Assembly: GCA_964349125.1 (NCBI GenBank)
Contig: CAYGFH010000002.1
Coordinates: 174,484-238,483 of the forward strand
Origin: an uncultured Gammaproteobacteria bacterium
GTDB lineage: Bacteria > Patescibacteriota > Microgenomatia > UBA10105 > UBA927
Reading direction: 5' to 3'
Length of the DNA: 64,000 bases
How positions within the stretch are numbered: the first letter of the stretch is position 1; each line of letters begins with the position of its first letter. The notes below the pieces were generated by a model. The model was not told where the DNA came from. It did not search any database and worked only from the letters and a program-made list of their open reading frames with translations. The position numbers were made by a program, and so were the translations under genes. This document shows positions 6,001 to 30,000 of the stretch, piece by piece.

Positions 6001-9000
6001 AATTTATCTTTATTGGGTGTAAATAGGATTCTCCATTTGTTTTTGCCGAGCGGAGGGTTGGATCAAAGACGACTGGCTCAAGGAATCTGTGTTTCTCTGC
6101 CACGTTTGCCGAAAAGAAATTGACCATATTCCCTAGAAGCTTTACGGATTGATTTTGGGTAATTATGCCAACAGCATTCGCTGATTGCATTGCGCTTTCT
6201 GCCAATAATTGAACACCATCTGCATACGATAATCCGTTCGGAATTTTATCCCGCTTCGGCAGTTGTTTATAAAATTCCAAGAAGGCATCTGCAGGAGAAA
6301 CACCCTTAGCAAGCGCACGAGTGATCAGTAATTCCCCAAACTGGCTTTGCTCCACCAGCTCAAAGTGTGCTGCATACTCTTTGGATACCATTGCAAGCAC
6401 TTCTTCCTTTGCCTGAGCGTATGACAATTCCGGATACTGCTTCATGAGAAGCGAAATCATAAATCCGGTCGCCATGCCTTCGTTCCATGCCTCGTTCATT
6501 ATCGGCCCCAGAAACCTCACCATGTCATGCCCTGCTTCATGTGCAGCCAACAGAAATTGTATGCGCTCAATATCTTTTAGATTTGCGCTCGCGCGAATGA
6601 CGTAGAGTCCCAGCCGCTCATCATAAAATGCCATCACGTTCTTTTGCTTCGGATAAAACAGTTCAAATTGTGCATCAGAATACACGACTGTGTTGTAGTG
6701 AATAGGATCTTTCTCTGCGAGTGGAAGCGGTAATTTGAGGTTGTTTAGAAGTGTTCGTATAGTTTCTACAATGCCAAGCACACGTGCACGGTTGAGTCTG
6801 TCCGGGTGAGCGTCATCAGGAGTCTGCTGCGATTCATACCATGCTTCTATCGCCTCTTTGCTTACGTCTGATAACTCTACTCCAGAGTCCTTGAGTGAGA
6901 GCGGATATCCCGCTGGATCTTTGATGTGTAAGGCTACATACCCTTTTGCCAGGCCGTTGTTTTGCCAAAACGGCTTTGTATAAAACTGTTTTAGTACTGC
7001 ATCCTGCCCGTCTTTTTGCTCCAATTGTGCTACCTTGAGCAGTGACCGTGTTACTGATTTTTTTGCTGCTGGCGTAATTGTCATGCGCATATCTGCAACA
7101 ACATCAGATGCTACTGCCGCCGGTGCTCTCATAATTTGCTTTGTGGCACGTGATGACAATAGCGCGGGCTCATCATGAATTCCCATGGATGCGAGGATCG
7201 CTTTACTCACTAAATGCGCAGGATCTATCGGGGGATTTACTTCATCCTTCAGGTATTCTGCAACTTCGTCAAATTCAGTTGCGGCTGACTTAAACGCTTC
7301 GGGTAATTCCGTACACCCAAGCACCACCTGTACATCCATTTCCTTCAATTCCTTCACCAGTGCCAACACTTCTTTATGCATTTCGTGCTTGCTGTTTATC
7401 GTATAGCCTATCTGATCGCGAATCTCATTTGGGACAAATGCATTGCCGACAGACACTTTATCCATCCATATGATTTTTTGCACACGGCTCATGACATTCT
7501 GCGGCAATGTATCTTTCTTTTTTTGCCTGTATGTCGTAAGGCCGTGTTTCTGTGACATGGTATTCATAAATACATCGGTTCCCAATATAATCACATCACT
7601 ATTATGTTTTGCGAAATTCACAATCTGATTGATGGTTAGGTAAAAGAGTGAATCACCTTCCCCCCACCGAATAGCCTTAAGTGCCACATCATGAAGCAAG
7701 CTGATAGTGTTACACGCGACAGAGAATTGACACCCGTACTGCTTGGCAAACAGGCGTAATTTTCCGTACAGTTGTGAGAGCCCGAGCCGAGCGTTAGTGT
7801 TGAGCATATCTGCTATCACAGTAGGCTTCATGCCTACCGCCGTCATAAGTTTTGCGACCCAATTTGGGATAATGCGCTGTGCTGCCCCAAAGTAAATGAG
7901 CGTCGCATTAATCCTCGGATCCAGCTCATCGGTAAAGGCAAATCCTGATCCGATATCTGGCGCCGCAATCCATGTCCGACCCGCAAGATTCGGGAACGGG
8001 AACGTTTCAATATCATTCACCAACTGCCAACTGCCATCTGCTTTTTTTGTATATACTGTGTCTCTATCCGCATTATTGTCTACTCTGATCCTGATGCGTG
8101 CACCCGGCTGTATGTGATGAAGCGGTAGCGCCTGATCCTCCAGAGGATACCGGATCCCTTTTTTCGGGAAAAAGAGAGCAAATTCTCTCGTAGTTGTTTC
8201 ATTTGGCAATACACCCTCCAACCACATAAACGCATCATGTTTCGCTCGCATCAAGCTGTCGGCAACCAAAGGCAACACTTGCATGCCAGGTCTGTAGGCT
8301 GTGAGTTTGGTGCGAACTTTAGAGAGGAACGCAGATGTATCCGCAGTACGAAGATCATATGTTGCGCCGACTGCATCCGCACCATCTCCATACAGCCTTG
8401 CCAACCGATTATATCCGCGTTTTTCGTCACCAAAATATTTCAACAGATACACATCCAAATCAGGCACGTTATTGTTGAGTTCTTTTTGCAATCCGGCGAG
8501 GTGGGCATCCGCACTGTTACTGCGTATCCTGTCCTGACTGGTGTACACCCATTTGGAGACAGTCGGAGCAAAATCATAGGCAACGCCGGGATGGAGGCGG
8601 AATGAATGCTTCTGATTATCCAATTTACTGGTATAGGTGTATGTATACGAAGAAAGGGCATCGGTAAATTTGCCTGCGAGGGCAAAGAATCCTTCCTGAG
8701 TAGTAGGTATTCTGGAGTTTTTTATCTGCGACAAGGTGACACCTATCGCTTCAGTTATGAGCTGATCCCCCAGTTCATGCCCTTCAGCATCCTGCAGAGC
8801 CTTGAGCTCTCCGGGAGAATCTATGGCTATCACATGAGCAGAGCCAGCCCTGCCGGGATAGGCAACATAGAGCTCTATCCCCCGTCTGAACGTAAGAATT
8901 TGTCCTGGTTGTATAGTGGCGAGCATCTGTTGGAATACCTCCATAGACCGGGTGGATATAATCGTCGGATCATTAGGACCATATCCAAGCTTCTTGACCT

Positions 9001-12000
9001 GTGCATCCACTACTGGATCGGTAAACGCAGCTACCATAATCCGTTTTGAAACCTGCTGATTATCCTGATTCGGATCCTTTGAAATTCTATCTGTGACAAA
9101 TTCACTGAGCATTTGTGCTATTCCCGGATATCCTTTTTTCAAAAGATCCTGAATTTGTAGGTCGGTAACCTTTGGCAACAAGTCACCGTTTGCATCGCGA
9201 ATTTCCGCATAAAATTTGGATGTAGACCAGGCAATTTTGATAGGCAATTTGGCAAGGCCTCCGGTTTTTGTGGCATACACCCACTCAAGTCCGTCCTGCA
9301 TGAATACATCTTTACCCGAAGCGGGATCAGTAGAATTAAATAGAGCCGTATGAATGCGTTTTTCCATTTCGACGCGTCTATCATCTGAGTGTTCTATCGC
9401 ATTGTTTAATTTTGTTATCTCAGATTGCAGCGTTCTGATCCGGATTTCCAATTCCAAAATTCTTTTGGTAGCTTCATTACTGTCTCCAGACGGTTGATCA
9501 GAAAGCTGTGATACTAACTCCCTCATTTGAGCTATGGTTTTTTCCAATATATCCTTCGATTGTTCACGCTGCATAACCATATCCATATCCTCAGAAAGCT
9601 CGATAATCAGATATTCATCTCCGCTTATTCCGGCGCGGACAATCACACACCGACCACAAATACCCTCTAACCGCTTCGATAACGCACCGATACCCACTCG
9701 AAGCAACATATCTCCCCCAACCATACCCAGAGGTGTTTCATTTGATTCACGAAGACTGGCAAAATCTACACGCCCAACCACTTTTCCTTTGAGTAAATCA
9801 AGAAAAATCTGTTGAGTAAAACTTGTGTACACAGATTGAGAATCTGCATATTCAGATGCTATTTTTTTAACATCCTGTAGAATAGGAATTCCGTTTGCAT
9901 ACTTTTCCCATATTGGCTCAACATCAATAAACTGTGCATGCATCGGATCGGTAATCAACTGCTTGCGCAGCATTTTCTCCTGCGTCGTCGGCAATATAAT
10001 ACCCCGTGATCTCAGTGTGCTTATAAACATGTCCGCTAGTCGCAAAGCTCCTTCTGTATTTTTTGTCTGTTCGTATGCGTTGGGTAGCTCAAAAAGCGCC
10101 GTATCCAGCTGAGAGAGCTCTGAAATCTGTTCCTCATTCACAAAAAGGGAGACCAATTTGTCCGATACCGTGTGATTTTTTGCCATGGCCCGCTTCATAG
10201 CGGTCAAAAATCCCTTCGGATACGATGTTCGCAACTTTTCATCATCTAATGCTCCCAAAAACATTTCACCGTTTTTGTAATCAAAAAAGTCATCTAAAGT
10301 ATCAAATTCGTCTATGAAATTATTTATGACAAACGGCTGATCAAGCTTTGTTTTTCTGTCTTCAAGTGAGTGGAATTTCTCGTAAAGATACGCAAGAACC
10401 GGATTGCGTTTAGGATTCGGTGAGTCCTCGGTATAGTGCGGATATGTGCCAATAACCGCGGCATTGATAGCAGCAGCAAGGCTGGTAATCGCCGTATTTC
10501 TTCCGGTAATATTTGCGGAAAACAACTCCTGTGATGAAGTGGATGCCTGATCACTGTTGAGTGTAGCTGAAAGCTCCTCCTGTGTCAGCTCTACTATAAG
10601 TTTCCACAGCGTGTCTGATATCTGAACTCCTGGAAACAGGTGCTCGCGCAGGTAGGGAGCATTATGAAGAACAGCCAGATTAAAAAGCTCAAGGGATCGA
10701 GCGGCCGCATGTTCGTATCGGGGAGTAGCAAATCTTCTCACTCCTCCATTAATGGATTCTGCATAGATACCGGTATCCCTATACAGAATTGTAAGCTTTG
10801 TGGATGCATATACGGCCTTTTTCAGATCTTCTTTTGGTAGTGTGTTACTGGCCGCATCACTGGTCAAAAACGAAACCTGCGAATAGACATCCGGATTATT
10901 CACCTGTTCAAGCAGTTCAAGCATTTTTTGTGTGCGGGTCACTATTTTCCCTTTTTGTGCAGCTATAACACCATGGAATCCCCCGCGCAGTGACTGAAAC
11001 ACATTTTGCAGTAGCTTCCCACGCTGGGATGTATCGTGCAGTAGTTGTTTAATAGTGTAGAAGTATGATCGCGTAATAAATGTTTCCGGATCTAATAACT
11101 CATCGTTATGTACAGATTCTGTAAGTGTTCCATCCTGTTCAAGAATGGGTTTGAGCGATGCAACCTTAGCTGTTTTGTTTGCATAAAACTTTGCATATCC
11201 GCTTTCCAATGCCTTTGATATCGGGTGTTCTGTCACATCCTGTGAAGTGGGTGCTTTCAATTGTCCTGATACAACCAAATCCGTCCCCTTTATCATCATA
11301 GTCGGTGTGATGTCTATATTTATCAGTGTTTTTGCGGATAACACCGGAGCAATCAGAATTGTATCTTCGGGTTTTCTGATAGTTGGCATGGTACCCCATG
11401 CATTCGGAACCAGTGGGCCCGATACATATGAGTATTTCTGATCCGGAGTATCTGCATGCCACCAGGTACCTGTGTCGGGTATATCGGCTGAGACAACCTG
11501 TTCATTCACTGTTCCGTCAGAATCTATTGTATGAATCGGATACTTGGATTTGTAGTTAATCACGCAGGTCTCCCCTGCCTCGCCCTGGGCAAAGACGGAG
11601 GGGAGGAATAGGGATGATAGTTTGCCACAATTATCTGTCAAGGCAATATCCTTCTGTACTTGTGGTTTTGGTCGAATTACCACACCCGAAATCTCCCTAA
11701 CTCCAGGCTTTCTAACACCCCCACCTATTTCCACATACGGATCTCCGAATACGGATTCCGGTATATCTACAGAGATATCTTGTTCTCGTATGTCAAACTG
11801 GTCAGAAATGCCTATATCCTCACTTTGCAGTAGTTTCATGAAATTATCTTTGCTCGTATTCGCGCTTAATAGGGCGGCATTACTGACGGACATATTCATA
11901 GGGATAGTTGGGAATTCTTTCTGTAAAGCCTGAAGCTTTTTAATAACCACTAATGTGTTCGCTGCCAAAACATCCGGTGTTTTCGTTTCGTATAACGTAT

Positions 12001-15000
12001 CAAGGACAAAAGATAATCCTCGCTTTCCTGACGCATCGGTGGTAGGAATCATCCATACGACTTGATCGGCCAAACTCCCAATATTCTGGTGACTCCCTTT
12101 TGTGTATATATACATTCGGAACGGCTCTGCAAACGTCAGATTCGTATCGTTATTTGCTCCGGGCTGTAATACAGCGAGACAGGCACGAATATTCTCTATG
12201 ATGCTGTCCATATCGTGTGTCATGACACTTGTGAGCAACTGTTTTCCGGTTTTTGCGTTTGTTAGTGCACGTATTTGATCAAGTTGTACTTGCAAATTTG
12301 GATTATCAGTTTTGATGTCACGCATTTTCTGAGCTACTGCGTATAATTGTTGTAAGATATTCTCTATCTTTACCACTTGTTTTTGGATGTTTATCAGATA
12401 CTCCGAGACAATACGTCGTTCTTCATCTGTCAAACTCGCACCTTGCTTGACCAATAATTGTTGCAGGTCGGCAATATCTTCTGAGAGAGCAAGTGCACCT
12501 GAACCGGTATGAAACTCCTGACCGATCTTTGAAAAAATTAACGAAACCCTGTCAGATGGAGCCAGTAAGTCTCTCAGAACTGTAAGTTCGTTTGAAGCCT
12601 GAAGAGCATCTGCCTGGCGGATCACAGTAACAGCTGTGGAGATTGTTTTCGCTGCTTTTTGCAATTGTAAAATTGTGGCCGGATCATCGAGCGCTTCTGG
12701 AGTATCAAGCACTCCTTCTAATGCACTACGCACGGCACGTTCACTCTCTGAGAATTCTACGTTTCTATTATTTGCGGTCTGATACATTTTCGAAAGCGTT
12801 GCGTTAAGCGGTATTCCCGGATCTTTTCGTAGAAGCGCAAATAGTTGCGATATGAGAACTGGAATGTGGGATGGTATCTTTTCATTCTTGTCTGGGATCG
12901 GGACATACAGATCAGGGTCGGCCAGTTTTTCAAAGTTCGATAAGAAATTTGCTAGCTCCTGATCCTTGGTTAATGTCGATCCTAACATAGTTGATTGCTC
13001 ATCCCGAGTTAGCATATCCATAAAATGATTTTTATCGTCGAGACTTAGCTCATATTCTTCAACTATAGACTGAAATATATCTTTTCGATTTTTTAGCAAT
13101 GAGGAAACGATTTGAGCTTTTTCTTCGGTCAAATACTCTGTGGGGTCTATAGAATCGCCATTGATAAGGCTATTCCACTTACCGTGCAATTGAACTGCAA
13201 GAAAATACCCGAGAAGAGCCTCTTTATCAGCATCACGGGCAGCAATATTTGAATAAAATATTGAAGTATTTATGATACTTTTTACCATCGCTTCTGATAA
13301 TTGGTTTGGAAGTGTTTTTATCCCAAATGTACTGCGGAAAAGCGCGGTCAAATCACGACGGTTTTTTTCGTTAAAGGCCGATATGACAGTTTCACTCTTA
13401 TCATTTTGCAGTGATCCTTTGAAAGCGGTAAGGTCCGCCAACAGCGTATCAGTTGATTCGTTTGCAGCTACCACTATTCCGAGCTCACGTTTTGTCGACA
13501 GCACAACTTTTGCTTTATACAAAGTATAGCCGCTTCGGATAAATTCCTTCACCTGGCTTTCAGTGGCACTTTCTAATGATTCTACAAGACGTATAAAAAT
13601 GCGTACATCCGTATTTATAATATCTATAGATGTCTCATAGAACAACGCGATTTCATCATCGCTCCAGTTTTCGGCTCGAAAACGGTTTTCCAATGCTTTT
13701 AATCGATTCATAAACACTTCTTTATCCGCCTTTTGCAGAGATGATGTATACAGTTGCATTATGAGCGATCTGGAAAAGCTCAGAAGTGAATTTGCTTTCG
13801 TCAGATACCCTGCTCCTCCGTACAACTTGCTCATGTACATACTTTGCACAAGCTGTTTCGGTACTATGTCAGATTTTCCGGAATTTATATATGACATCCA
13901 GTCGTTTCGCAGCTGTGTCCATATGAGATCCTTTGCTTCCCTTCCGGAGAAAATATCGTCAAGTTTTTGCTTATCTGCTTCACTAAAGCCAATTATATTC
14001 AGAGCATTTGCCCCATGTGTTTGCACAAATGCATAAAAAAGCTGCAGTACATTGTTCGTATCAATTTGTACTTCCCGATCCGACATCAATTGTGACTTTA
14101 CCGTCTGAAGCTGAGGAAGCACAGTGTCTATGGCATATGCGTTGAGCACATCCGTAAACATCGCAGTATCCTCTATATGGCCTAATCGTATACTCTCAGC
14201 TGTAATTTCTTCACTAAATCTCCGCATCTTCTCAACAACTCCGGAATTGCCATATTCAAGTTCTCTGGCGATTATCTTAAGAAGCTCAGGAGTGGCAGTT
14301 AAAATAGGTACTCTCTCGGTCTCTTCGGACGGAAATAGGAGGTTTAATTCAGCATTTGATAATCGTTGCAGGGCATTAAACACATCGCCCACTCTGTTTC
14401 CGATTGCAAACCATTGTTTCATATATCTGGCTAACAGCTTTTCTAATACCGGGTGTCTTTCCAAAAGGGACATATACGATTTCGCAATTTTTTCTGTGGT
14501 CGCACCCGATCGTCGCCATTCGGAAACGTGTTTCAGGCTTTCAAGATATATTTGGGCATGTGTGGTCGTGTTGCTTAGATAAAAAATATCTGAAATTGAC
14601 ACCCCTTCACGACTCCACTGGGGTATCCAACGCGTAAGCAGAGCTTCACGCAGGAACCGCTCCGGAATATTCGCAATAAGCTTTGCAAGGCTACCAATTT
14701 TGTAAGAGTCTTCCGCATCTGCTATACGTAAACTTGCCCGGATTATTGCAGCAAATTCATGCGGTGTATTATTGAACTTCATGTATGCGTCGGTTGGCTT
14801 TAGCTTATGATTTATATATGCTTTTGACCGCATATACGCCATAAAAATTTCCAGATCTTCATCGCTTATATTTGCCCATATTTCTGGTGTAGTTTTACTG
14901 TTTATTAGCGCTGCAACACCAAATTCTGCTCCCAAAATATTCAACTCACTCCTTCGTTTTTCAACCCGACTTGCTCGAGCAGCTTGAATCTGTTTTTGTA

Positions 15001-18000
15001 CGTCCTCAAATGATTCTGCGGATATATCGTTGGTTGTTATAACTCGTTGTACGATATCGTAGGGCTGCTGAGCCAACCACTGAATTGCAGCGCGCTGAGC
15101 TGAAGAAGGAAGTGAGGAAATTCTAGGAAGAATATCAGCCATATTCATAGCGTCCAGAAAAAATGAAACCTGATCGGAAGGATTTGGTATACCATCCACA
15201 ACTGATAATAGTTGCTTTGTTTGCTGCGGGTATTCACGCACGAAATTCAGTATGGTATAAATTCGTTCAATTTTTTCCTTAGATTCTATCCATCGGGTTA
15301 TATACGGCGTTATAGACTGAACCACTTCTGGGCTCATCGTCTCAAAGTGGCTTAACAACTCATTGAGATCCATAAACGAACGTATTGTTGTACGCCACTT
15401 GGTAATCTCAGTACCGAGTAGTTGTGCTACCGATGGGTTATGAATTAATCGGGTTAATAATTCTTCAACAATTCCTACTGTCCAACCCTTTTTTAACCAT
15501 TCAGTCACAAGTGGGGCGGTAGGATACATTTCAGGCATTCTCGCGTAGATTCGCAGTAAACGAGAGAGATCTGCGGTATTTACGCCATCAACTTCTATCC
15601 ACTGGTCTACAAATGAAGCTAACTCGGCAGCACGAGTTGGATTCAGTACGAATGCCTGGAATAACGAGTCATACAAATATCCATATTTCCTCCAAGCGCT
15701 CGACTTCGTTGTAAGAAAGTTGAGTAGCTCAGGGTTATCTTTGACATTCACCATTACCTCAGGCAACACATCAGCCGGATTTCCTGAATCACTGTATTCT
15801 TTAAGATATGGCAAAATCTGATCCTGCTGCTTTTGAGTTAACCCGATAAACTCTGGCGCTACTGCTGTTACAACAGGCACCGAGATACCACTTGAAAGCA
15901 GTTTATTTACCGTGTGTACATATTGTGTCGATTCGGCCTGATTATCTAAGAATGCCACCAGCTGAAACACATCAAAAATATTTTTTACATTGGATTTCCA
16001 GATGGTAAATACTTCGTCATAAATCATTGCTGAAACAGCGGGAGGAAGCGCATCTATTTTGCGTATGACTTTGGCACTTGCTATCGGATCGAATAGACTT
16101 GTACGATATGCCCATGCCCAAATTTCAAACCTACGAAATAACCGTACTATCCCTCTAAATGTATTTCTCGACTGTGGCGCGACAGCGATATTTGATGCTT
16201 GTGCTTGGGTTTGTCCATCATTCTCAGGATTATCTGCCACCCATTTCGCTATCGCTTGCTGTTCGTCATCGGTATTTATTGATAGTACCTGCGTATCAAT
16301 TGGATATAGTGTTCCATTCTCATCCCATGCCCAATTCCTGCTGTATGATGCTTCGTTCGGATCTAACAGCGCCGACAATTTTGTAGAAGATGTATCTTCA
16401 GGATTATACTCGGGATCAATTTTCTTAATCCACCTGGTAAAATGAGTATCTCCCGTTGATATATCCAGACTTATTCCGTTTGCATCAATGGTGCCAAGAC
16501 TCAGTGTTTCTCTTCCATCTTTTCCGTTTTTATCTAAATGCTCGCTGACTGACTCCAGTGCGCGTGTGACAGCAAAAATCTGATACGCACCGCTTTTGGT
16601 TTTATAAAATAACCACTGTGTATTTGGATAGACTATCCCCTTTTGTGTCAGATATCGCAGTACCCTCAAACTATTTACTGCCTGTTGTTGAGATTGAACT
16701 AGATGGTCAGGTTTTACATATAAATATGTGGTGCTCAGTGTCGATTTATATGTACCACCTCTACCAGGCTGTTCCAACGTATATCCCTGTTGTTTTTTAA
16801 ATTCCTCAAATTGTTCTTCTGTGAGAGTTTCATTTCTGATAGATGAGGTTATTTTTTGTTCGATTGTAGACAATCGATCTTCCCCATCGATCTTTATAGT
16901 GTCTGGAATATCCTGCGCTCGAATAGTTTTCAGTAGCCCGCCGCCAAAAAATGTGACGGATGATGACGGGAGAAGTTCCAAGTGATTTACTGTTTGTGTA
17001 TCAATTGTGTACCACTTGAATATGTTCCATCCTAGGAAATATCTACCAGATTTTGGAATCGTTACCTTTTCCCCACTTTGTAGTGTCAATGGCAAGCCAA
17101 AATAGATTAGTTTGCATGGATCTCCCGCTGCAAACACAGATGGGAATAGGCGGAAAAATCCAGCCTGTGGACCACAGTCTGTATCAGCAGTTGCTTGGGC
17201 ATTGATGACTCGTAGATTTCCTCCATCTTTTTCTACTTCATTCAGATATTGCGTTAATGGTAACACTTGCGCAGTCGGATCATATCCGGATAACTTAGCA
17301 ATCCTTCTTAGTCTGTTTGAGATAGCAAATGCGAAGAAATGATCCCGTATAAACGCCCCGCTTTCTACAGATGCCTCCCGTGTGGCATCCCGTATATCAG
17401 CATTTTCAATTTCAACTCCACTTCGACGAGTGAACCATAATTTTGGCTCTCTCAGATATTCGTCCAATACACCATGTTTTATATACACTTCGATTATTGT
17501 TGAGCCAAATCTTCTATACAGCTCTTTTTCTGACATAGAATAGGTAGCACCCTGAAATCGCATCGAATCCAGCTCTTTTTGTGCCTCACTAAACCTGCCA
17601 TTCCATTCTGCCGCAAATGCAGTGAAAATGTTCTCATAATACTGGATTCTTTCGGTCCGCACGTTCTCTTTCAATGATGATAACGACTGCTCTTTTTGCA
17701 GTTCCGTTATGATATCTATCGGCTTTTTATCAGCACCATTTATCGAAATACTTACGTTCTCCGGGAATGATTCAAATAACGAGATTATACGCGTTGCGGT
17801 TACGTTTACTATTGGTTTCCCATCTACCCAAAAATAATCCGGGAGGATATCACCTGTCGTTCGTATGTACTCAAAGTACGTATGTATACTCTCCGGAGAG
17901 GCAAAATCCATATCCCCCGATTGCAGTGAATACGTAATATTTTTTTTAGTATCATAAATCTGATTCGTTTTTCCAACTATATCAGTATCGCCATTTAGTG

Positions 18001-21000
18001 AGAGCGTGATTCCATCAGGGGATAAATACCGCGCTGCATGCCTCCGGAGTGAGAAATACCAATAATTTAACTTACTGTTACCCAACCGATACAACGTTCG
18101 AATTGCATTCGGACTATCTATTGCAACACGCACAAACGACATGCCGTCTTGTTTTAGAGCTGATAATGCGGCGATCCACCCTTCGGTTGCAGGCACGTTT
18201 TCTGAGGGGATAAAATAGACACCCACCATTCCCCGTTCTTCATTCCAATTTCGGATGGTTCCTATGATATGCCCCAGGATGACACCGTTTTTCCGTTTAA
18301 CCTCAAACACTGTTTTTCCATTTGATTGTTCTTTCTTCAAAAACTGTTCTACTTCAGATTCAAACCCACCATCGGTATCACTTGCGTATCGGCGAAGAGT
18401 CGCATCTTGTATAAGTTGTATTCGATTTGTCCCCATTGGTTGGAATTGCCCGTGAATTCTGTCATATAAATCTCCCAACACCCCAGAGAGCGCATCATTC
18501 ACGCGTGCAAGATCTTTTGAATCATAAGGAATAGCACGTTCCCGCAATGTTTCTATATAATAGGAAATAAAATCCTCTCTTGAAATTTCGGCATACAGTA
18601 CCGCTGGGGCATCTTCCTGAATTTGAGACAGTATATCTTTCAAGATGGTTAATGATTCTTTCCAGTATATTGAATCAACAACGTTGAGTACTCCCCTCAA
18701 ATGATCTTTGTTCGTAACAAATACAGATACCGCTTCAAAAATATCCTGAATATCAAACGTACTTAACGCTTCCTCAATTTGCGTGCCGTTACCCTCTAGT
18801 TCTTTAATCACCGCCTGTATTCGTTCAGATTGTTTTATCCACTCCAGAATGATCGGATGCTCGTCACTGTCACGTAACAGTTTATTTACATCCACAGTCA
18901 CACCATTTTTTGCCAGCATTGTACGAATCTGAGGCAGGGCTATGACCATCATTTGCTTTTTTAAATCCAGAGGGAATCGTTCGTTCATAAATAAACGTAC
19001 TATGCGAGTCAGCACTTCAGAACTTAATAATCTTCCTACGGTTGCTTCATTTGAATATTCAAGTGATTTTGCCGACATATATATATCCACTATCGATTCC
19101 CACGATACCGACTGTTTTCCTTGTGCGAAATCATTCATTTGTTCAAATCCGGACAATAATATTTTGTCCGACAACGAAGGGCTTCCTTTAGAAAATTCTT
19201 GTACAAAACGGGTGTATTGATCCATAATATTGACTTTGTCCTGATCAGACATATGTTGACCTGGTCCAAATGCAGATGCAGCAATCGCAAACTGTTCTCG
19301 CAATCGTTGAATACGATTATTCGGTCGTGTAGAAAATGTTGCTACCGCCGGATTAACTGATCGAGTCTCTTTATCAATGGCAATCGCGTATGAATTCGGT
19401 AAATCAAGTGTTTGTGCTATAACATGGTGCGACTGTTCGTGCGCGCTGATCTCGGATGTGTTTGCATCTGCCGTATACCCGTACATGTCAGGGTTGTCAT
19501 TCATATCCTCGAACACTGCAATTGCAGCCGCATCGGCCTCAAAAACAAATAGCTGATCAGATGAACGAAAAGAGATATATTTTGAGGCAATACTTCCCTC
19601 CGGCAACAACGCCATGATCCGTTCAGCATCCAGGGAATTCTTTTTATTTCGTACAAATTTTAGCAGTGTATGTATTTCCGATATGAACGCTTTTTTATCT
19701 TGTTCGAACTGTGCATACTGCTGTGTCGCATGATCACGATGCAACCAGGAAAAAGAATCAAATGCTATACCATATGCCTTCATGAGCCATGTGTTTAACG
19801 CAATCTGTTTATCCAATGTAACTTCTTTGAGCGCGTCTTTTAGTTCCACAGCAGCGAGCAATATCTGTTTTTTCTCATCAACCGAAGCTGTCTTATAATC
19901 CACAGATGCCTGGATGAACCGATGGAGCGATCGAGTCCACTGGACATCTTGGGGCTCACCAAACCATTGAGATGGATCTATGAGCATGGAGGGAGTAATA
20001 TTGGGCTCATAAGGTTGATCTGAGATCAGTGACCTGCTTATCTCACCTGCCAACACATGCCCTTCCAGAGCCAGAGAAACGTTTGTTTTCATAAATGCAG
20101 AGAGCTCCAACGCATATGCAGATCCCTGAACAGCATATCCGGACAAGAAATCACTTGCAGTCAAAATTTGTCCTAGCGATAAATATCGCTGAACCCTATT
20201 GTCCATCGGAATATTCTCTGCAAGTATCATCGATGCGATTTGCATTCTTCGGGATGCAAATGATGAAATGGCATTGACTCGACTATTCAACATATGCACG
20301 ACACTCCCATCTCTCATTTCCAATATTTCAAATATATCTAACGCATCGAGCTCATCTTTGCCTACTATATCTTGCAAAATCTGATACAGTGTTTTATTTT
20401 CCCTTTTACCCTGATATACAGACAGAATCGTGTCAACATCAGCAAGGACTGATAGAAATTGTTGCCCTGAATGCGGTGATTGCTTCAGCTGCTCAAGGAC
20501 ACGCATGGTGTACACAACGGGGGCGCTTTCCCGATAATTACTCACATGTTTTAACGCCAGCAAGAGGAGATCTATTCGTTTACTCGAGTCTATAGAACTC
20601 GATACCGCAGGCTCTGGCAGAGAATATTGAGAGGAGTCTGCTTCAATACTAAGTAGTAATCCTGAGTTCATCAGCACAGATTCCAATTCAAATAGAGCCT
20701 GTACGCTTTTGGATAACGCATCAAATCGATCCGAACGGTATTGGTCCTCATTTTGAATCTCAATGCTTCTCAGACGCTCTAATGCACCAAGCAATTGATC
20801 AGAAACCGCATTTTTCTGCTTTGTATATACCACTTTCCATTGACCCGGAGCGATTTTGGATATCGCAGGGACAGCAAATCCTTTTTTCGAAGCCTCCTTA
20901 TATGCGCTTTGAACCCGATTCATGTATTCATCTGCTTGCAACATACCGTCTTTCGTTGCTTTCACGAGCCAAACACTATCATCATCTTCCTTAAATCGCT

Positions 21001-24000
21001 CTGAAGTTATAAACGATACTGACGGTGGTGTTATCGTTTCCGTTACAATTGCCTGACTCGCAGTAACAGCAGGAAGCTGGGTGATTCGCTGTACCTGTTT
21101 TTCATAAATAGTTGGAACATCTACAATAAATGGTTGAATTTGACGTCCCTTTGCGTCTTTCGCTCCTTTTGGAGGAAACACTTTGACGTATTGCGTGGAC
21201 GGAATATTCTTGATTTGTTTCCCTACAGAACGGGTTCCTTCTTTGACACTTTTGAGTGATTCGAATGTCCCTATCATAAATGTGGATCCAGGCATTATTT
21301 GTGATGGCGTCGACGGAACTGGCTTTCCCTCAGGACCAGCCTTAACCGTCTCCACAGGATCCGCACCAACGTTCAGTACTATACATGGCGCTCCCGCCGC
21401 AAACACCTGAGGTAGGAAACGGAATGAGTCTTGTGGACCACAGTCTGTTTCTACAGCTGTTTTTCCATCATTGGCCTGTACGGATTCCTCGCGCGCAAGC
21501 AAGGCTTTTTGTGCCTGCACGTGTGCCACATCGTAGGACAAATCCTTCAGAATATCTGCTTGCCCAGATGCGCGGATGGCATCAATCGCAGCTGTGTTCA
21601 ATTTTGCAATACTGTAGGGAAACGCCCGATCATCTGTTCGACGTCCGCGACGCACTTTCGCTCCATCAGCTCGTTGCTTCATTTCACCACTCGCAAATAG
21701 TTTTTGCTGGTAATAACGATCCCCTGCTGTGATAAATGGATCTGCAAGAACTATATTTTCGACGACCAATACCTTTTTACCATCCACCGTCACGTTTGGA
21801 ATAGGATCACCTTCCAAAATGATATTGGGTTTATAGATATCATTGTGCGGAAGTCCACGCTTTTGCAGTGCTAAGACCCTCTTATATGCCTGTTCTTCAA
21901 CATCAGGAGGGATGAGGTAGTAGTAATCGCTGTCAGCAAAATATTCACCTAACGCTCCACCAACTATTGCTTTTTGCAGTATTCCTACCGGCTTCCCTTT
22001 CCAGTAGACGTATCCAACCACTTCGTAATAGAGCAATTTCCCATCAAGTGTTTCTCTGGCTTTTGATATAAACGCGGCTGTATCCTGCGGCAGATTTGGG
22101 TTCTTGCTGAGTATATCCGGATCGAAAAACTTTACTGCCAATGCAGTTGGTGATGGCCCATTCTCCCAAGCAAAGACGGCACCCGTTGCTCCCGAACCGA
22201 ATACTCGTAAACTGGATAGCGGCGGCACCGTGAAATTCGCAACTCCCATGCCACCTGTTTGAAATGCTTGTTCTTTCTCCATTTCTTGCAACCGTGATAT
22301 GACTTTTGTTTTTTTCGCATCTGAAAACGCTTTCCCAAGAGGCTCTTCTGTCTCCGGTTCATCCGGGTACTCAGTTATTGGATCTTCGGTCGGCGCGTTT
22401 TCTGTTGAAACAGCTTGTGGTGTCGGAGCGAGAGATTGCGGGTTTAGTTTCTTGTCAGTTTTTTTCAGATACTGTTCTATCACAGTAAGCATTTTTTCGT
22501 AGCCTTTGCCGGTGAGTAGCGTAACGTAATTGTCAAACCCTTTGGTTCTAAAATTTACTCCCGGATCATACAGTGGATACTTCTTTTTAAATTCATTAAG
22601 GGAAATGAGCTTTCCATTTCGTCCCGAGTGGGCTATGTCATAAAAAGTCTGGAATGCCTCACGAATATTTCCGTGGTTATGTAGTATCCAATTCTCTACT
22701 CCAATCCCTCCAAGCCCTCCATCTCCAAAATCATCAAATTTCTTATATGCATGACCCTCTTTTAGCAGTTTCTTCGCAAGCAATATATTTGCAATCACCT
22801 CTGCACGTTTAGATTCCTCAAGTGAATCTAACCTGCTTATCACAGCGTTATTGGACGCGAACAAGGCCTGATCTTCACGTGTTGTTATACCAATATCCAG
22901 ATCTATCGTGCGATCTCCAACTTTAACACTCTTCAGGCGTACTTGGAGCTGTTCGTCTCCCCCACCGGCTGCCACTTCCGATTCATGAGGAAACGCAGCT
23001 TTGAGGGCGGTGGCTATCTGACTTGCACGTTCAAAATCTTTTGCATTTACGCTTAGAGAGAAGTCAAAATCATAATCACCTATGACATTGGTATGCCGTC
23101 CTGAAGAGCCTATATTTGCAAGCTGTGCGAGGTGCACTTGTGTATCTTTTTGCTCTACCGCCATACCAATGCCCATGTCATTCAATGTCTTTTGGATAAC
23201 AGTTCGCACATCGGCATCAAGCTTCGACACAATGTCACTATCCGCATTTATGTTTGGGATGATTTCCTGGATATCCGCTGCGATAGGGTCAGACGGGGGT
23301 ATGAGCATTGCCTGAAACTTCCCGCCTGCAAATTCCTGAACACCTTCAAATGCTTCGCGTCGTACATCATACATCTCGGGTGTATATAATACGGTTCCAT
23401 CTTCATCTACAACCGGCACGTAATACCCATTTTTTGCGATAGACATGTAGAGGGTTTCCATAAATGGCTCATTTGCTCGTATAGTTTTTTTCGCTATGAT
23501 GGCATCAACTTCGCTCATCGGAAGCGCTGACCGTACACCCACATGATGCTCATTTATAGGCCCATTTATCAGGCCGTATTTTCGTATACTCTCAGTTTCA
23601 TTTGCTGCTCCATTCTCAAGATAAAACTGATCTCTATTTCTGACTAGCAGAATAAGTTCTCCATACTCGTTTGCTATTGAATTTTTCAGTTTGCCTCTGA
23701 ATGATTTTGATGATTCCGATGGTAAAATCTGGGAAAAGTCTGTATCCAGAGGGGTTGAATCAGTACCACTATCCCCCCCCATGAGCTCTCGAGCCCTAAG
23801 ACCACCCTGCAGAAGGTTTTCTATTGAAAATATAGTAATGGCGTTTTCTTTACTAATCGGGAACACTCCTTTGAGCAAATCTCCCGCAGACATAGAGATT
23901 TTTCCGAACCCGGCGCGTACTGCAATTCTATTTCGCTCATCTGCTGTTTTTCGAACCGATGACAGCTCGGTTTGCAACTCGTCCAGAGAACCATACCCAG

Positions 24001-27000
24001 TTTGCAGTAAAAACATCTGTGAAATTCTTCCGACTAATGTCTGGCCCTCGGATACCCGATAATCTGCGTAGAGACGGCGTATCTGTTCACGGACATACGA
24101 GTCCTCGGAGAGTCTTTTTACTTCCATCTGCTTCTTGGTACCTCTTCCAAGCAGAGAGGTACGATAGAGTACATCACCGCGTACTAAAAATAATTCCAGA
24201 TTTGACCGCTGCTGGGGGTTTAGTATTTCACCCTTCATAAACCTATCCGCCAAATCTGAGCCAGTACGCAAATGAGTAATATATTGATCCAATTCAAAGT
24301 TTCCGGAACGTACGGTAGACCGAAGTAAATCACGATAGATTATCTGTCGTTTGGCCAGTGGCGAGTTTGCGTTCTTTAACACTGGACTTATATTCTCGGA
24401 CTCTTTGAACATTTTCGAGAGGACGTCATCGGTATACAATATTTCAAAAACTCGGAATAATTTTGCAAAATACGGGATATTATTTTCTTCAAATATACTT
24501 CGAATCTTCTCAAAATCCGCTCTCGGGTCTTTCGCGTCTTTAAGGAGGTCCAATATCTGCAGCTGAAGCCTACGGAGCTCTTTGGAAGGACTATTCCCGA
24601 TTTGATCAAACAGATCCATATATACCCTATACTCACCTATCAGGGTTTTTGAAATCTTTTCTCCTTTGGCAATCCGGTCAAAGAAAATGCGTTGAATCTT
24701 TGCGGATTTGACTTTGGTTTGGTTAAACAGTTCCCAAAATTCCCGTTCATCAGCGCTCAGCTGTATTGACGTATCACTCGCAAGCAGTTTGCCATATGTA
24801 GCGATTATATTTCGATCCTCACGGAACATATTTTCGCGCTCATCGAAATTCATATCAGCCGCTTTTTTTCGCAGATATTTATGCACATAGCCAATCGTGT
24901 CAGGATTAGCGTGTCTGAATGTCATCATATACTGGTTAAATTCAATGCCTTTTAAAAGATCTCCAAATGATTGAGTCATCGCAGCAATCGCCTCTATTGT
25001 AGGAATGTCATACAGATCTACTGGCAGCGTTACTAGTTCCAAACTAGATTTATCTATCTTCCCTTTATATGTCTGAATAACCTTATAGAGGGACTGGAGA
25101 GCCGCTGGATCCCATCTGGCCAACTTGTTCAGAAGATCTAATGCCCACGTACCATTACTTCTAAGGAGTTTTAAAAGAAATGAACTTCGAATTGGGGAAT
25201 TAACTACAAACCTATCGATAAGGCTTGCTGAGATTTTCGTCCTTACGTTTGATTCACTCAGCAAGAGAACAGCGTTTGGACTGTACGTTATACTGCCACC
25301 GATTAGATTTAGTATGCGCAGTAAATTTCCAACCTCAGTAAATGTTGGATTAAGTATATTTTCTATAGCAGAAATTCGGGAAATTTTGTTACCGTCGCCT
25401 GCCTTATACATAAAATTAACGGCTTGAATTTTTTGAGGTGAAGCTGTTTCCAGCTGTGTAAGTATTCCCGATACGTCGACACTTTGGTAATCTTTTGTTA
25501 TTTGATCCTTAAGCTTTATACGGAGCGACTCGATTCGCAGTTTTTCTTTTTCCGGGGCAGGCAGAGACAGCTGACGCACCCATGATTGAAGTTTCCCGAC
25601 TACGGTTTTATTTGGCATTTCACCCGTCATACCTGTTTTTTGCAGCATCCACCCAATTACGCTACACACTTTTCCTTGTTTGTCTGCCGCGTAGACGGTT
25701 ACCAATGGTATTCTTGCCTGTTCTTCACAGCCTTCTGTCTGCCCATCTATCCATTCCTGCGCAGACTCTTCTATAGGTGTGCCCAGTAGAGATCCGGTAT
25801 GAGCAACCACTACGCCATTAAACTGAAATTCTCCCTTAATCCTGCCATAATTTCCGGGAACAAATTCGATATAGTGGTCACCTAAAGCCGAATCTCGAAT
25901 CGTGACGCTAATCTCAGACATATCAGAGACCGTAACATCATTATCGTTGGCAGCTTTCAATGAAGTCTCTAGAGATTCTTTGCTCGTTTTTGCCGTTGTC
26001 AGCGTAGACTCAGGAACAATGATCGATAATTTTATTCCTGGAATGCTTTTTTTTATCTCCGTGACTTTTTTGATCAGTACCTGAACATGGTTTTCCAATA
26101 CATCACTTGTTACTGAACCATACGGCCTATCCAATATAAATGCGATACCTTTTGTGCCATCCGGATATGTGACCGGCTCGAGATACACCAATTGGTCTGT
26201 GATGCTTCCACGGAGCTGTTTCCTCACCTTGCTGTATATAAAGAACATATTCCCGTCCCCCATCGTCAGATCCGTATCATTGTTGATACCCGATCCGCAG
26301 GAACTGTTCATAGCGAGACACTCTCGCATGTTTTCGGCAATATCATTTATATTGTTGGTAAATGTGCTCGTAAAAATTCTGGATGTAGATCCGCTCTCAA
26401 ATATATCGTCCATATAGGAAAGTATGCGAATGATATTTCCAAAACGTGCTTGTATTGCCTGTTGCTCGTCTTCTTTTTCTGATGGTTTTAATATGGATAG
26501 CGAGAGATATTTATCGTGAAGCTTGTTGTAAATATCCAAAAGTTTGACCGTCTGGGCTCTGGCCTCAGAGAGGTATGCATTTGCTGCGGCAAGATCATCT
26601 TCACCAATCTTACCCGAATTTTTGTCCAATATATCTTGCAGGCGCTCCAGATCTTCTGTGAGTGCATATGCTCCTGAGTCACTCTTAAATTCTTCCCCCA
26701 ATTTCGAAAAGATGCTGACCACCTGCTGAGAGGGTATAAGCAATCCCCGAAGCCGCCCTATTTCATCCGAAACATTGAGCTCATCCACATACTGGCTCAT
26801 GCTTGCGATAGTAATGAGTGGCTTCATATTTACCTGGAATACTTTGGTAAGATTCTGGACTGTATTCTCCAAACCCGATTCCTGCAAAATCCGCTCAATC
26901 TCCCTCAGAATTGCTTCACGCTGCTGTAGTTCGCCATCTGCAAACACCATTGCTGATGTTCCCTTAAGCTTCATTTGGATTGCGTGGGTAATCACCTTTG

Positions 27001-30000
27001 TCACTAGAGCGGTGGGATATCGATTTAACAGGCTTATAAGCAACTTATCCTGCTTACTTGCATAGGCCTCAGGATCCTGCAAATTCACAAGGGATCCGAT
27101 GATGTCTGTGAGCTTATAATCCACTGTCAGAACATTCCCTAACCGTTGTTCTGAAGCATCTTGTTGAAGAATTTCCATTACAGTTGCAAATTCTTTCGCA
27201 GACAATCCCGCATCTTCAGGAGTCACTGCAGGCATTTTTTGCCTGTTTTGCAGCGCTTCATCAACGTTCTTTGCCTTTTCTGCCACTAAATACTCTTTGG
27301 GATCGATATATTGCCCTTTACGAAACTCTAGCCATTTCCCGTTAATCATGAGGGCGAGATAATATCCTATGAGCTCCTGGTTCTGATCCTCCGACAACAC
27401 TGTCTTTGACTCTGAGTGTAGAAATGCCAAATACAATGACATATTCACGATTGACCGTGTCTGCTCCTCATTAAATACTTCGGGAGCCTTGATAATACCG
27501 AACTTATCTTTAAACAATGATTGAATGTCCGATAATATCTTCTTCCTATGAGTTGAGAACAAATCAGGTGTTGATTTATAGTTTGATTGAAACTCGCGTA
27601 TATCTTTTCTTATATTTAACAGTGCCGTCGTATTTGGAGTTTGTTCACCGGATCTGTTATATGTTTCGCTCAGCGCCAATTTTGCTTTATATAATGGGTA
27701 AATTTCTTTTGCAAAACGTTTAAAATCCTTTGGTGACATCGTCTGAATGAGAGAGAGAAAATCTCCAAATAGACTCGGTGCCGCCCGTAACACATCCTTA
27801 GAAATCGTATAAAATTCTGCCCGTTCATCTCCGCTCCATTTTTCCTTGGTCATTCTCTCTTCCACTGAGGCCACCCCCTGAAACAGCGCATTTATAGTGA
27901 CAGGAAGCGTTGTGGGAGAATGAACGGCATCATTAAATGCTCCTATAAACTGGCTTAGCGCCTCTATTTGACTAAAAAATGCTACGCCACCGGCCGCATC
28001 TATGAGATGAGGCAAAAATACCAGCTCAAATGGTGTTCCTGAGGTTTCGATTCCAGCGTGAAGATACTCGCTCCACGTTGTCAGTAATTTCTCAATAACA
28101 AAATCACGAAGGTCTTTTTGATTAGACAGGGCATCAACGAACTTAAAATCTTCTTCAGTGAACTCATACCCCTCTGCTTCTTCCACATCGTGCATTGCAG
28201 CCACAGCGGTAAAGAGTGCCAACCAGTTGTCATCTGTTACGGTTTGAAATTGTGGTTTCGCGAGCTGCTCTTTCAGATGCAGCAATTGCATTTTTGCTAT
28301 CATATCTACCTTATTCTGAAATGCTATTTCATCATTTGAGAAATTTTCGTTTAAGTATGTGGCTAATCGCTCACCCATCACCCTACTCGTCACTGGATCG
28401 GGCGATTGAAAATTAAACAAATAAGATCGCCAAAATTGAAAGTCGTCATCTGCCTGAAACAGCTTTGTTCCCATCAACTGCACGAACTCCCGAAGGTCAG
28501 GATTATTCCGATAACTCTTCCACAAAAACTGCATACGGGGAGTTGCATCTGCAAGCATTTCATCGGTAAAGTTAAATGTTTCAAGGATAGAGGGAGCAAG
28601 CTTAATAAATTCTGATTCTTTACTCTCTATAACAATTGTGGCGAAAATCGCATGATCGATATTCTCCGTTTTTTTGAGCTGTTCAGTGGCCGTAGTGATA
28701 TGAGTATAAATAAATTCTTGAATCCATGACCCTCTAAAAGACTCTGCTTGCAGCGCTGCTTTCATGGTCTCTTTATCGTCTTGTGTCATCTGTGGAAAAA
28801 CTCCCAAATAATTCGAGAGCATTTTCCATGTATCCGGAGGAATTGGCGGATAATTCCCTTGATCATCAGTCATGTCCAAGATAAAAAACTTGACCCTCTC
28901 AGATGCGCCTACTATATCAAAACGATCATTAAGCGCGCGCATGATGTTAGTAAGATCTCCGTCATGAAATTTAATCCCACTGTTCAGAAGTGATTTTTCG
29001 AGTGCTACAAGGGGAATAAGCTTTGCGATGTTCTCGTTTAATAACGTATCGTCTTTTATAACAGCGATGATTTTCGCCAAAGCGCTCATGGCACCTTTTC
29101 GCTGTAAAAGCCTAAGGGTATTTTCTTCTCCCAATGATCTGAATAATCCGCCGTAATATACTTTTGCCCCTACAATAGATCTGACAAATTCAGGAAATTC
29201 TTCAAGTATTGCATTGGAAAGTAATGCTGTATTGGGGCCGATAGTAGTTTTATCAAATCCCGCTTCTTTCACGAAGGCGAGCATCTGTTGCAGCTCATAT
29301 ATTTCTTTCCCGCCACTTTGGACAAAGGCCTCAACAATGTTCAGTATTTTGTCCGAATTCGGGATGACAAAAATTTCTTTCCAGTGTATAGGGTTATCAT
29401 TAATCTGATTCAACAACGCGACGGTTTTTTTTGTATCTCCCTCATCCCATACAAACGGCATATATCCATATTCAAATCCCACTCGGTATGAGATGAGTAA
29501 GTCAGCTATTTTTTTGTTTGTCATACCAGGGATGCTCTGAAGGATTCGGATAGCATCTTTCAAATTTTTGATAGCATTGGGTTTTTCTGATAGATCAGCT
29601 ATATATTTCCGAAATAAGCTCGAACCCACTATAAAGTTCAAATTATCCATACTTTTTGTCGCATCTATAAATCCAATGACGGTTTGGATAACTTTTGCAT
29701 CCGTTTCGTCTGATCCGAACGACATGATCATATGCTCCAAAGTACTCACATCAACAGTGTCATATGCGGCATATGCTGTAAGAATTTTTTCCAGATTAGA
29801 TTGACCCTGGCTGGATTTGCTGTAAATAAAGAGTAGATTTTGGATATATGATGTGTCTGTTTTCCCATTGAGTGATTCACCAGACAATTGAAGCGTATTC
29901 ATGAGCCCAAGTAATGTTGACATTCTGGTAAATGATTCTCTTACTGAAGTGGTATCCAACGGTACGCTATTTGATAATTTACTGATAATAATTTGAATGA

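Follow-up and report, generated by a model that had tools for sequence, protein, structure and literature searches.

What does a nucleotidyltransferase (NTase) signature do deep inside a bacterial reading frame of more than ten thousand codons? The window analyzed here, a 64-kb stretch of contig CAYGFH010000002.1, is filled almost wholly by two tandem minus-strand reading frames, genes A and B. In gene B, an initial annotation had flagged an exact match to the Pol-beta NTase pattern hG[GS]x(9-13)Dh[DE]h and, about 55 residues on, a third acidic strand. Both are present in gene B: the minus-strand translation reads IGSSGRHTNVIGDYDFDF at nt 23113-23060 and IDLDIG at nt 22906-22889, with the third Asp (codon 22897-22895) 56 residues downstream of the D-F-D. 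Sequence conservation and a predicted fold identify the flagged segment as the catalytic lobe of an intact, two-lobed NTase of the Pol-beta fold, predicted from its pattern of conservation to be active. It belongs to a conserved module of about 740 amino acids (Table 1 gives the coordinates and numbering).

The pattern is statistically weak when taken alone. Shuffled versions of gene B contain a mean of 0.195 matches, and a second match lies at B residue ~10020 (window ~1440-1493, minus strand; CGSKKNIRYTIQNKDVEL), to which the family profile gives no support and which is probably accidental. That the flagged motif is likewise a coincidence of a very long protein has next to no probability, since conservation across homologues and the predicted fold lift it above chance. 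Although the 226 homologues compared share only ~30-40% identity with the window's copy, G525, S526, R529, D538, D540, D596, K637, L640, Y646, and E663 are kept in 100% of them, and T531, N632, K647, and W665 in at least 95%. The window's copy keeps G525, S526, R529, D538, D540, D596, K637, Y646, and E663, and it departs from strongly conserved positions only conservatively (e.g., T385S and G386A). Such a pattern indicates an active enzyme under purifying selection rather than a chance motif or a pseudo-NTase. A catalytically dead scaffold comparable to NF45/NF90, MiD49/51, or Utp22, which would bind a nucleotide or RNA without transfer, is accordingly very improbable; the pseudo-NTases known to us have lost the carboxylates, the G-S pair, and the triphosphate-binding residues, whereas the carboxylates, G-S, and the triphosphate-binding R, K, and Y are invariant in the 226 sequences and present in the window. 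We therefore rejected both the pseudo-enzyme, on the invariance of its catalytic residues, and the chance motif, on this conservation and the structural matches.

The fold was predicted with AlphaFold2 for B residues 2661-3050 from a 5-sequence alignment (mean predicted local distance difference test score, pLDDT, 68; mostly 70-93 in the NTase part). The model consists of a long helix and a sheet of five strands, followed by a helical second lobe. Its highest-scoring structural matches (scores in parentheses) are the class I CCA-adding enzyme of A. fulgidus (13.9), Cid1 (13.8), GLD2 (13.7), TUT7 (13.5), the cGAS/DncV-like nucleotidyltransferase (CD-NTase) CdnG (13.4), MEAT1 (13.3), URT1 and CutA (13.2), poly(A) polymerase (PAP) alpha and yeast PAP (12.9), OAS1 (12.8), CdnC (12.1), and CdnE (11.9), followed by cGAS-like receptors (cGLRs) and cGAS (8-11) and by the Pol X family and Rel/SpoT (<10). 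Because the alignments extend over 200-230 residues and cover both lobes, the segment is best described as a bilobed Pol-beta NTase with a second lobe of the PAP/OAS1 type. The model shows the alpha/beta catalytic fold of the Pol-beta superfamily as well as the bilobed cGAS-like fold and the head and neck fold of class I CCA enzymes. The structural comparison proposed by the initial annotation thus placed the segment in the Pol-beta NTase fold and not in another, and where that annotation had left open a CD-NTase helical bundle or a PAP/OAS1 domain, the modeled second lobe is of the latter type. Its description of the geometry as that of a minimal NTase did not hold, since a full helical second lobe is present. 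The scores themselves do not separate RNA-tailing enzymes from CD-NTases.

In the model, D538, D540, and D596 would hold two Mg2+ ions, and the G-S pair, R529, and T531 together with K637, K641, and Y646 of the second lobe are placed to hold an incoming nucleoside triphosphate (NTP). This would be the standard geometry for transfer of a nucleoside monophosphate from an NTP onto a hydroxyl. To our knowledge, every catalytically active bilobed NTase of the PAP/OAS1 type transfers a nucleotide to a ribose hydroxyl of a nucleotide or RNA. Given this fold class, an acceptor of the same kind would be expected here, and not a protein or an antibiotic. No protein- or antibiotic-modifying NTase occurs among the 60 structural matches listed, and the AMPylating module once suggested for this segment lacks support.

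The NTase is not conserved on its own. When 151 family proteins were compared with genes A and B by blastp, they aligned only at B ~2290-3035 (~740 amino acids), and a 226-sequence family profile (hmmsearch) found a single match in A and B together, at B 2292-3035 (E 1e-230). The module evolves as one unit. Since the conserved unit spans 740 amino acids, the 485 residues upstream of the NTase were also modeled (20-sequence alignment; pLDDT 82.7, predicted TM-score 0.81), yielding a helical domain of ~260 amino acids and then an alpha/beta domain. The latter resembles ADP-ribosyltransferases (ARTs). Its best structural match is yeast Tpt1 (7.9; 109/120 residues aligned), followed by three structures of DarT (7.0, 6.7, and 6.2), SopF (5.9), KptA (5.8), and CteC (5.7), with OspC3 and heat-labile enterotoxin (LT) lower. 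D268, K271, E299, D308, T310, P311, D315, H380, and R384 form an invariant signature. Foldseek returned nothing significant for this domain, and searches of Pfam and the PDB, run with single sequences and with the domain profile, gave no ART match. We name the predicted domain ART-like on the evidence of its fold, and not a member of the Tpt1 or DarT family. Tpt1/KptA and DarT are the ART groups whose substrates are nucleic acids (PMC6333775, PMC10415124, PMC9503650), and Tpt1 uses NAD+ to act on 2'-, 3'-, and 5'-phosphates of RNA (PMC6333775, PMC6573784, PMC9503650). Between the ART-like domain and the NTase lies a small alpha/beta element in which P423 and G447 are kept in all sequences; its resemblance to a CBS domain stays below the Pfam threshold (E 0.04-0.13).

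How widely is this module distributed? A word-indexed search found four relatives only, the best being a partial protein of Candidatus Collierbacteria at 46% identity; the best homologues are from Collierbacteria (37-46% identity to the window's copy). A profile search of all representative proteins recovered 1,117 clusters (50% identity) at E<=1e-3 and 696 at E<=1e-30. Most of the 150 best-scoring clusters measure 1,300-1,900 amino acids, and the match, of ~465 profile positions, ends at the extreme C-terminus. In a scan of one genome per species, 142 species carry the module, mostly Patescibacteria, whose record titles include Collier-, Pacei-, Zambryski-, Saccharibacteria, Uhr-, Davies-, Magasanik-, Moranii-, Peri-, Gracili-, and Roizmanbacteria. 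It is also carried by small-genome gut metagenome-assembled genomes (MAGs) labeled Bacilli or Clostridium. Many distant members (26-30% identity) come from animal- or human-gut MAGs labeled Bacilli, Clostridium, Erysipelotrichaceae, or Muribaculaceae, with some contigs of ~0.9 Mb (loci L047, L054, L056-L059, L063-L068, L070-L077, L079-L082, and L084-L086); either the family reaches small-genome Bacillota or these bins are mislabeled.

The position of the module within its proteins is equally consistent. Motif positions could be located in 69 of 80 family loci, and in nearly all of the 69 a GxGxENW motif lies ~85 amino acids before the stop codon. Only in L037, L044, L045, L059, and L071 is the module internal to a longer protein, and the flanks in these loci are unrelated to gene B. 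In L037 (contig CAYHHA010000003.1), it sits inside an open reading frame (ORF) of >4,734 amino acids that spans the whole fetched 14,223-nt locus, while the other four reach 470-1,160 amino acids past it. In the window, a linker rich in Pro, Glu, and Thr starts where the stand-alone proteins end. The C-terminal position in nearly all loci and the placement of this linker mark the module as a common cassette that is rarely embedded as it is here. The setting had been called unusual, which is true of the giant protein; the module itself occurs commonly in Patescibacteria, where it forms the C-terminus of proteins of ~1,500 amino acids.

The rest of these proteins is much less uniform. Five full-length and 20 other members contain essentially no Pfam domains, and no Pfam domain reaches threshold on the module. 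The N-terminal regions are variable and unannotated apart from two: P0159 carries a Rho RNA-binding domain (E 3.8e-7), and P0104, judged from its sequence, an extra small N-terminal NTase (Aminoglyc_resit, E 1.9e-5; NTP_transf_5, E 1.4e-4). The sole source name met for the family is 'hypothetical protein' at NCBI, and five more clusters that were looked up carry none. We conclude that a family of large soluble Patescibacteria proteins has this module as its conserved C-terminal core. Neither the NTase fold nor the ART fold is new in itself; as far as the libraries and papers searched show, the family, its three-domain architecture, its apparent spread across the phylum, and its insertion into a protein of >10,000 amino acids are undescribed.

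Which branch of the NTases this is bears directly on what it would make. Counts out of 22 refer to a set of 22 diverse NTase-only family sequences. Pfam NTP_transf_2 (PF01909) matches 7/22 members, all below threshold (best E 1.5e-4), with no match to the window's own copy; SMODS matches 2/22 (E 0.025; weak matches in three members over all scans) and MTPAP-like_central 1/22 (E 0.006). Neither tRNA_NucTransf2 nor PAP_assoc matched in the family. For the window's segment with 500 amino acids on each side, there was no match in Pfam, NCBIfam, or PADLOC at usable thresholds, and a 390-residue query of its NTase region found nothing in PADLOC. PDB sequence searches (phmmer/hmmsearch) with a single sequence and with 5- and 22-sequence profiles gave nothing significant. 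Comparison by hhalign with reference sequences (probabilities: OAS1, 36%; AfCCA, 0.6%; Cid1, 1.3%; DncV, 0.6%) likewise gave nothing significant, did not separate the subfamilies, and counts as no more than a lead.

Taken together, we propose, by analogy and with a probability of about 40%, that the acceptor is a nucleic-acid 3' end, most likely of RNA, and that the NTase cooperates with the ART-like domain. The two could form an end-modifying pair that heals or marks an end and tails it, by analogy with Tpt1. This proposal draws on the Tpt1/DarT-like neighbor domain, on the marginally best NTase structural matches, which are RNA 3'-end enzymes, and on the generic Pfam models, which outdo SMODS. 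The Rho RNA-binding domain of P0159 was also counted in its favor.

Several observations weigh against it. The NTase model rests on five sequences. Class I CCA enzymes and canonical PAPs have a body and tail or RNA-binding domains of the RNA recognition motif (RRM) type, whereas the present NTase is compact (~275 amino acids), ends the protein, and has no such domain. PADLOC 'Cyclase' models of the cyclic-oligonucleotide-based antiphage signaling system (CBASS) match up to 11/22 members (nine different models; best E 3.4e-6), and the window's 278-residue domain, scanned alone, matches a CBASS cyclase model at E 0.019 over profile positions 39-94 of 253. Finally, the family profile returns only cGAS from the PDB sequences, at a non-significant E~1 and in the correct register at GS and DxD.

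The last three of these observations, with the weak SMODS matches, are consistent with the main rival, a divergent synthase of the cGAS/DncV/OAS kind, which would use free nucleotides, or acceptors derived from NAD+ or ADP-ribose and provided by the ART-like domain, to produce an oligonucleotide signal, either cyclic or 2'-5'/3'-5'-linked. Bacterial signaling enzymes are usually built with a conserved catalytic domain at the C-terminus behind a variable N-terminus, and the variable N-terminal ~800-1,100 amino acids would then be the sensor and the conserved C-terminal module the output. We nevertheless consider such a synthase possible rather than likely. The cyclase match of the window's copy is confined to the generic catalytic core; the comparison with cyclase models is one-sided, because PADLOC holds no RNA-tailing models to compete with them; and in Pfam, which has both kinds, NTP_transf_2 outdoes SMODS.

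The genomic context also argues against a signaling enzyme of the known defense type. When the flanking ORFs of the 80 loci were clustered, no conserved neighbor emerged, whether effector or receptor (the best cluster occurred in 7/80 loci), and the annotated neighbors were unrelated and of a housekeeping type (BipA, a CSD protein, glycosyltransferases, DivIC, and ABC transporters). Residues 1-10,000 of gene B contain no defense or Cap (effector) domain and no SAVED, STING, or TIR domain, and tblastn of phage and plasmid collections found no homologue of the module. Membership in a CBASS operon was rejected on these three grounds, and the NTase is not a CBASS CD-NTase. Of the initial cGAS/DncV-like label, the likeness remains worth considering, in view of the bilobed cGAS-like fold of the model and the weak cyclase matches; the CBASS context it might imply, including the co-occurring Cap domains that were to be looked for, is absent.

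The giant protein could also be imagined as a delivered weapon, with the NTase nucleotidylating (e.g., AMPylating) a protein or small molecule and the ART-like domain ADP-ribosylating a target in a host or competitor cell. The ART-fold matches include the secreted effectors SopF, CteC, OspC3, and LT; the protein is giant and multi-domain in a lineage thought to be host-dependent; and conflict systems are known to include 'polyvalent' proteins with several enzyme domains (PMC5512222). A crude hydropathy scan also shows one hydrophobic stretch near a candidate start codon of gene B, and nothing else in B bears on secretion. In the same kind of scan, however, 56 stand-alone members had no signal peptide and no transmembrane segment except for one weak internal hydrophobic segment, so that the description of the protein as secreted is not supported. 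NTP- and NAD+-dependent chemistry requires a cytoplasm, the cell's own or that of a host. Moreover, no immunity-like neighbor is conserved, a conserved C-terminus behind a variable N-terminus is the reverse of the layout of polymorphic toxins, and the broad distribution in the phylum without conserved neighbors or mobile-element copies looks like that of a housekeeping protein. We therefore regard an effector or toxin role as unlikely.

A further variant joins the two chemistries in sequence. OAS can 2'-adenylate NAD+ and ADP-ribose. In a hitherto undescribed two-step pathway at the core of Patescibacteria biology, the ART-like domain would use NAD+ to add ADP-ribose to a nucleic-acid end or a nucleotide, and the NTase would extend from this ADP-ribose or cyclize with it, yielding ADP-ribose-linked oligonucleotide marks or signals of a new class. 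We give this scheme only a small chance of being correct. If true, two-step ADP-ribose chemistry might act at the symbiont-host interface in giant proteins such as gene B.

Table 1. Features of the window and of the conserved module. Module position p begins at nt 24685-3p; domain names in the module are predictions.
Feature	Position (nt)	Strand	Remarks
Gene A	31947-63869	minus	10,640 amino acids
Gene B	2..31552	minus	Stop-free frame of >10,517 codons, continuing past the left window edge (six-frame scan)
Conserved module: helical, ART-like, NTase	22448..24679	minus	B residues 2292-3035; single copy in window
All-helical N-terminal domain	23909..24682	minus	Module positions 1-258; helices H2-257 in AlphaFold2 model; P70, K74, F79, D118 among conserved positions
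ART-fold (ADP-ribosyltransferase-like) domain	23483..23899	minus	Module positions 262-400; motifs GDLLKG, LQNGSVAKEFLG, SDxTPxDTD, HxGIRTG
Small alpha/beta element, IAKNGYYVPVVDEDGTVLYTPEMYD...FEG	23342..23482	minus	Module positions 401-447; weak half-CBS-like motif
NTase catalytic lobe	22880..23287	minus	Module positions 466-601; long N-terminal helix, then beta-sheet with three carboxylates
G525-S526 of hG[GS] (IGSSGRHT)	23105..23110	minus	R529 and T531 next; G, S, R 100% and T 95% kept (226 sequences)
D538-F539-D540, first two metal-binding carboxylates (predicted)	23063..23071	minus	D538, D540 100% kept
D596, second D of IDLDIG, third catalytic carboxylate (predicted)	22895..22897	minus	100% kept; model strand E221-231
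PAP/OAS1-type helical second lobe	22457..22879	minus	Module positions 602-742; ANIxLAKxxLK...AYKK...GGLGGIGVENWIL
Pro/Glu/Thr-rich linker, NPQSLAPTPQAVSTENAPTEDPITEYPDEPETEEP	22334..22444	minus	Directly after module; read from sequence

Outside the module, genes A and B yield little to the profile libraries. The sole Pfam match on gene B is a GNAT acetyltransferase domain (~nt 4661-4867, E 5e-7), and that on gene A is an FHA domain (~nt 44886-45086, E 7e-13). One region of ~230 amino acids is common to A (38562-39254, minus) and B (6326-6946, minus) at 28% identity (blastp E 2e-12), and the two genes are otherwise unrelated in sequence. The stop of A and the open frame of B are separated by an AT-rich spacer of ~390 bp (window 31553-31946). 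Candidate ATG starts of gene B lie at nt 31528, 31465, and 31357, none with an obvious ribosome-binding site; the third would open with the hydrophobic segment MGSAGGIVSGFLISFAIA. About 80 residues past the NTase module, B contains protein-kinase-like motifs in canonical order, as read by eye (window 21680-22201, minus): FGSGATGAVF (G-loop), AVK, HNDIYKPN (catalytic loop), and LADPF (DFG-like). Neither PDB phmmer nor Pfam gave a supporting match for this region. A 399-residue ATG-initiated ORF runs antisense within gene A (window 49570-50769, plus strand) and most likely exists only because the other strand carries a long stop-free frame.

A large part of bacterial diversity belongs to the Patescibacteria, and functional annotation is poor for most of their lineage-enriched protein families (PMC6744442). 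In one such unannotated family, two enzyme folds can now be recognized: an NTase that appears catalytically intact from its sequence and model, and, on the evidence of its fold, an ART-like domain. The family comprises >1,100 sequence clusters and has members in most of the major lineages of Patescibacteria, and a 'hypothetical protein' thereby becomes a testable enzyme. The result also provides a first mechanistic handle on giant gene B and shows such giant proteins to be assembled, at least in part, from cassettes that elsewhere form the catalytic end of large proteins of the ordinary kind. Should the NTase produce a nucleotide signal, this would be a case of a CD-NTase-like enzyme that functions without a CBASS-type operon; should it instead tail or repair RNA together with a Tpt1-like domain, minimal-genome organisms would have an RNA end-processing activity not seen before.

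Among known systems, the class I archaeal CCA-adding enzyme (A. fulgidus, PDB 4x4n) has a head and neck that fold like the NTase of the window. The family differs from it in having no tRNA-binding body or tail, the protein ending ~85 amino acids past GxGxENW or, in B, passing into the linker; it is also bacterial (Patescibacteria), fused to the ART-like and helical domains, and without a tRNA_NucTransf2 match. The non-canonical poly(A)/poly(U) polymerases (Cid1, GLD2, TUT4/7, TUT1, URT1, and CutA) differ from the family, which has no PAP_assoc match, zinc knuckles, or RRMs, and in which the base-stacking S-Y position of Cid1 reads G-I by eye. In contrast to the CBASS CD-NTases (CdnG, CdnC, CdnE, CdnB, and DncV), the cGAS/cGLR enzymes, and OAS1, the family has no adjacent effector and no defense or mobile context. 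It is apparently phylum-wide and part of a large multi-domain protein, and its matches to CD-NTase hidden Markov models are sub-threshold or partial.

The ART-like domain can be set beside Tpt1/KptA and DarT in the same way. It has no sequence-level match to Tpt1/KptA, whose R-H-R-R tetrad and RNA lobe were not identified in it, and the region upstream of it is all-helical. It possesses instead an invariant signature of its own (D308, D315, H380, R384, and K271) that distinguishes it from Tpt1 and DarT, and no DarG-like macrodomain partner accompanies it as in DarT/DarG. At the level of the whole protein, the closest parallels are the polyvalent proteins that phages and conjugative elements encode (Iyer et al., 2017, PMC5512222) and the giant genes of predatory or ultra-small bacteria (West-Roberts et al., 2023, bioRxiv 10.1101/2023.11.21.568195), which likewise combine several enzyme domains in one very long polypeptide; neither paper, as far as searched, describes the NTase family. 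The module differs from both in having no phage or plasmid homologues and in being mainly chromosomal and stand-alone. In the window, this otherwise stand-alone module is embedded as a cassette in a giant protein that continues beyond it through the linker.

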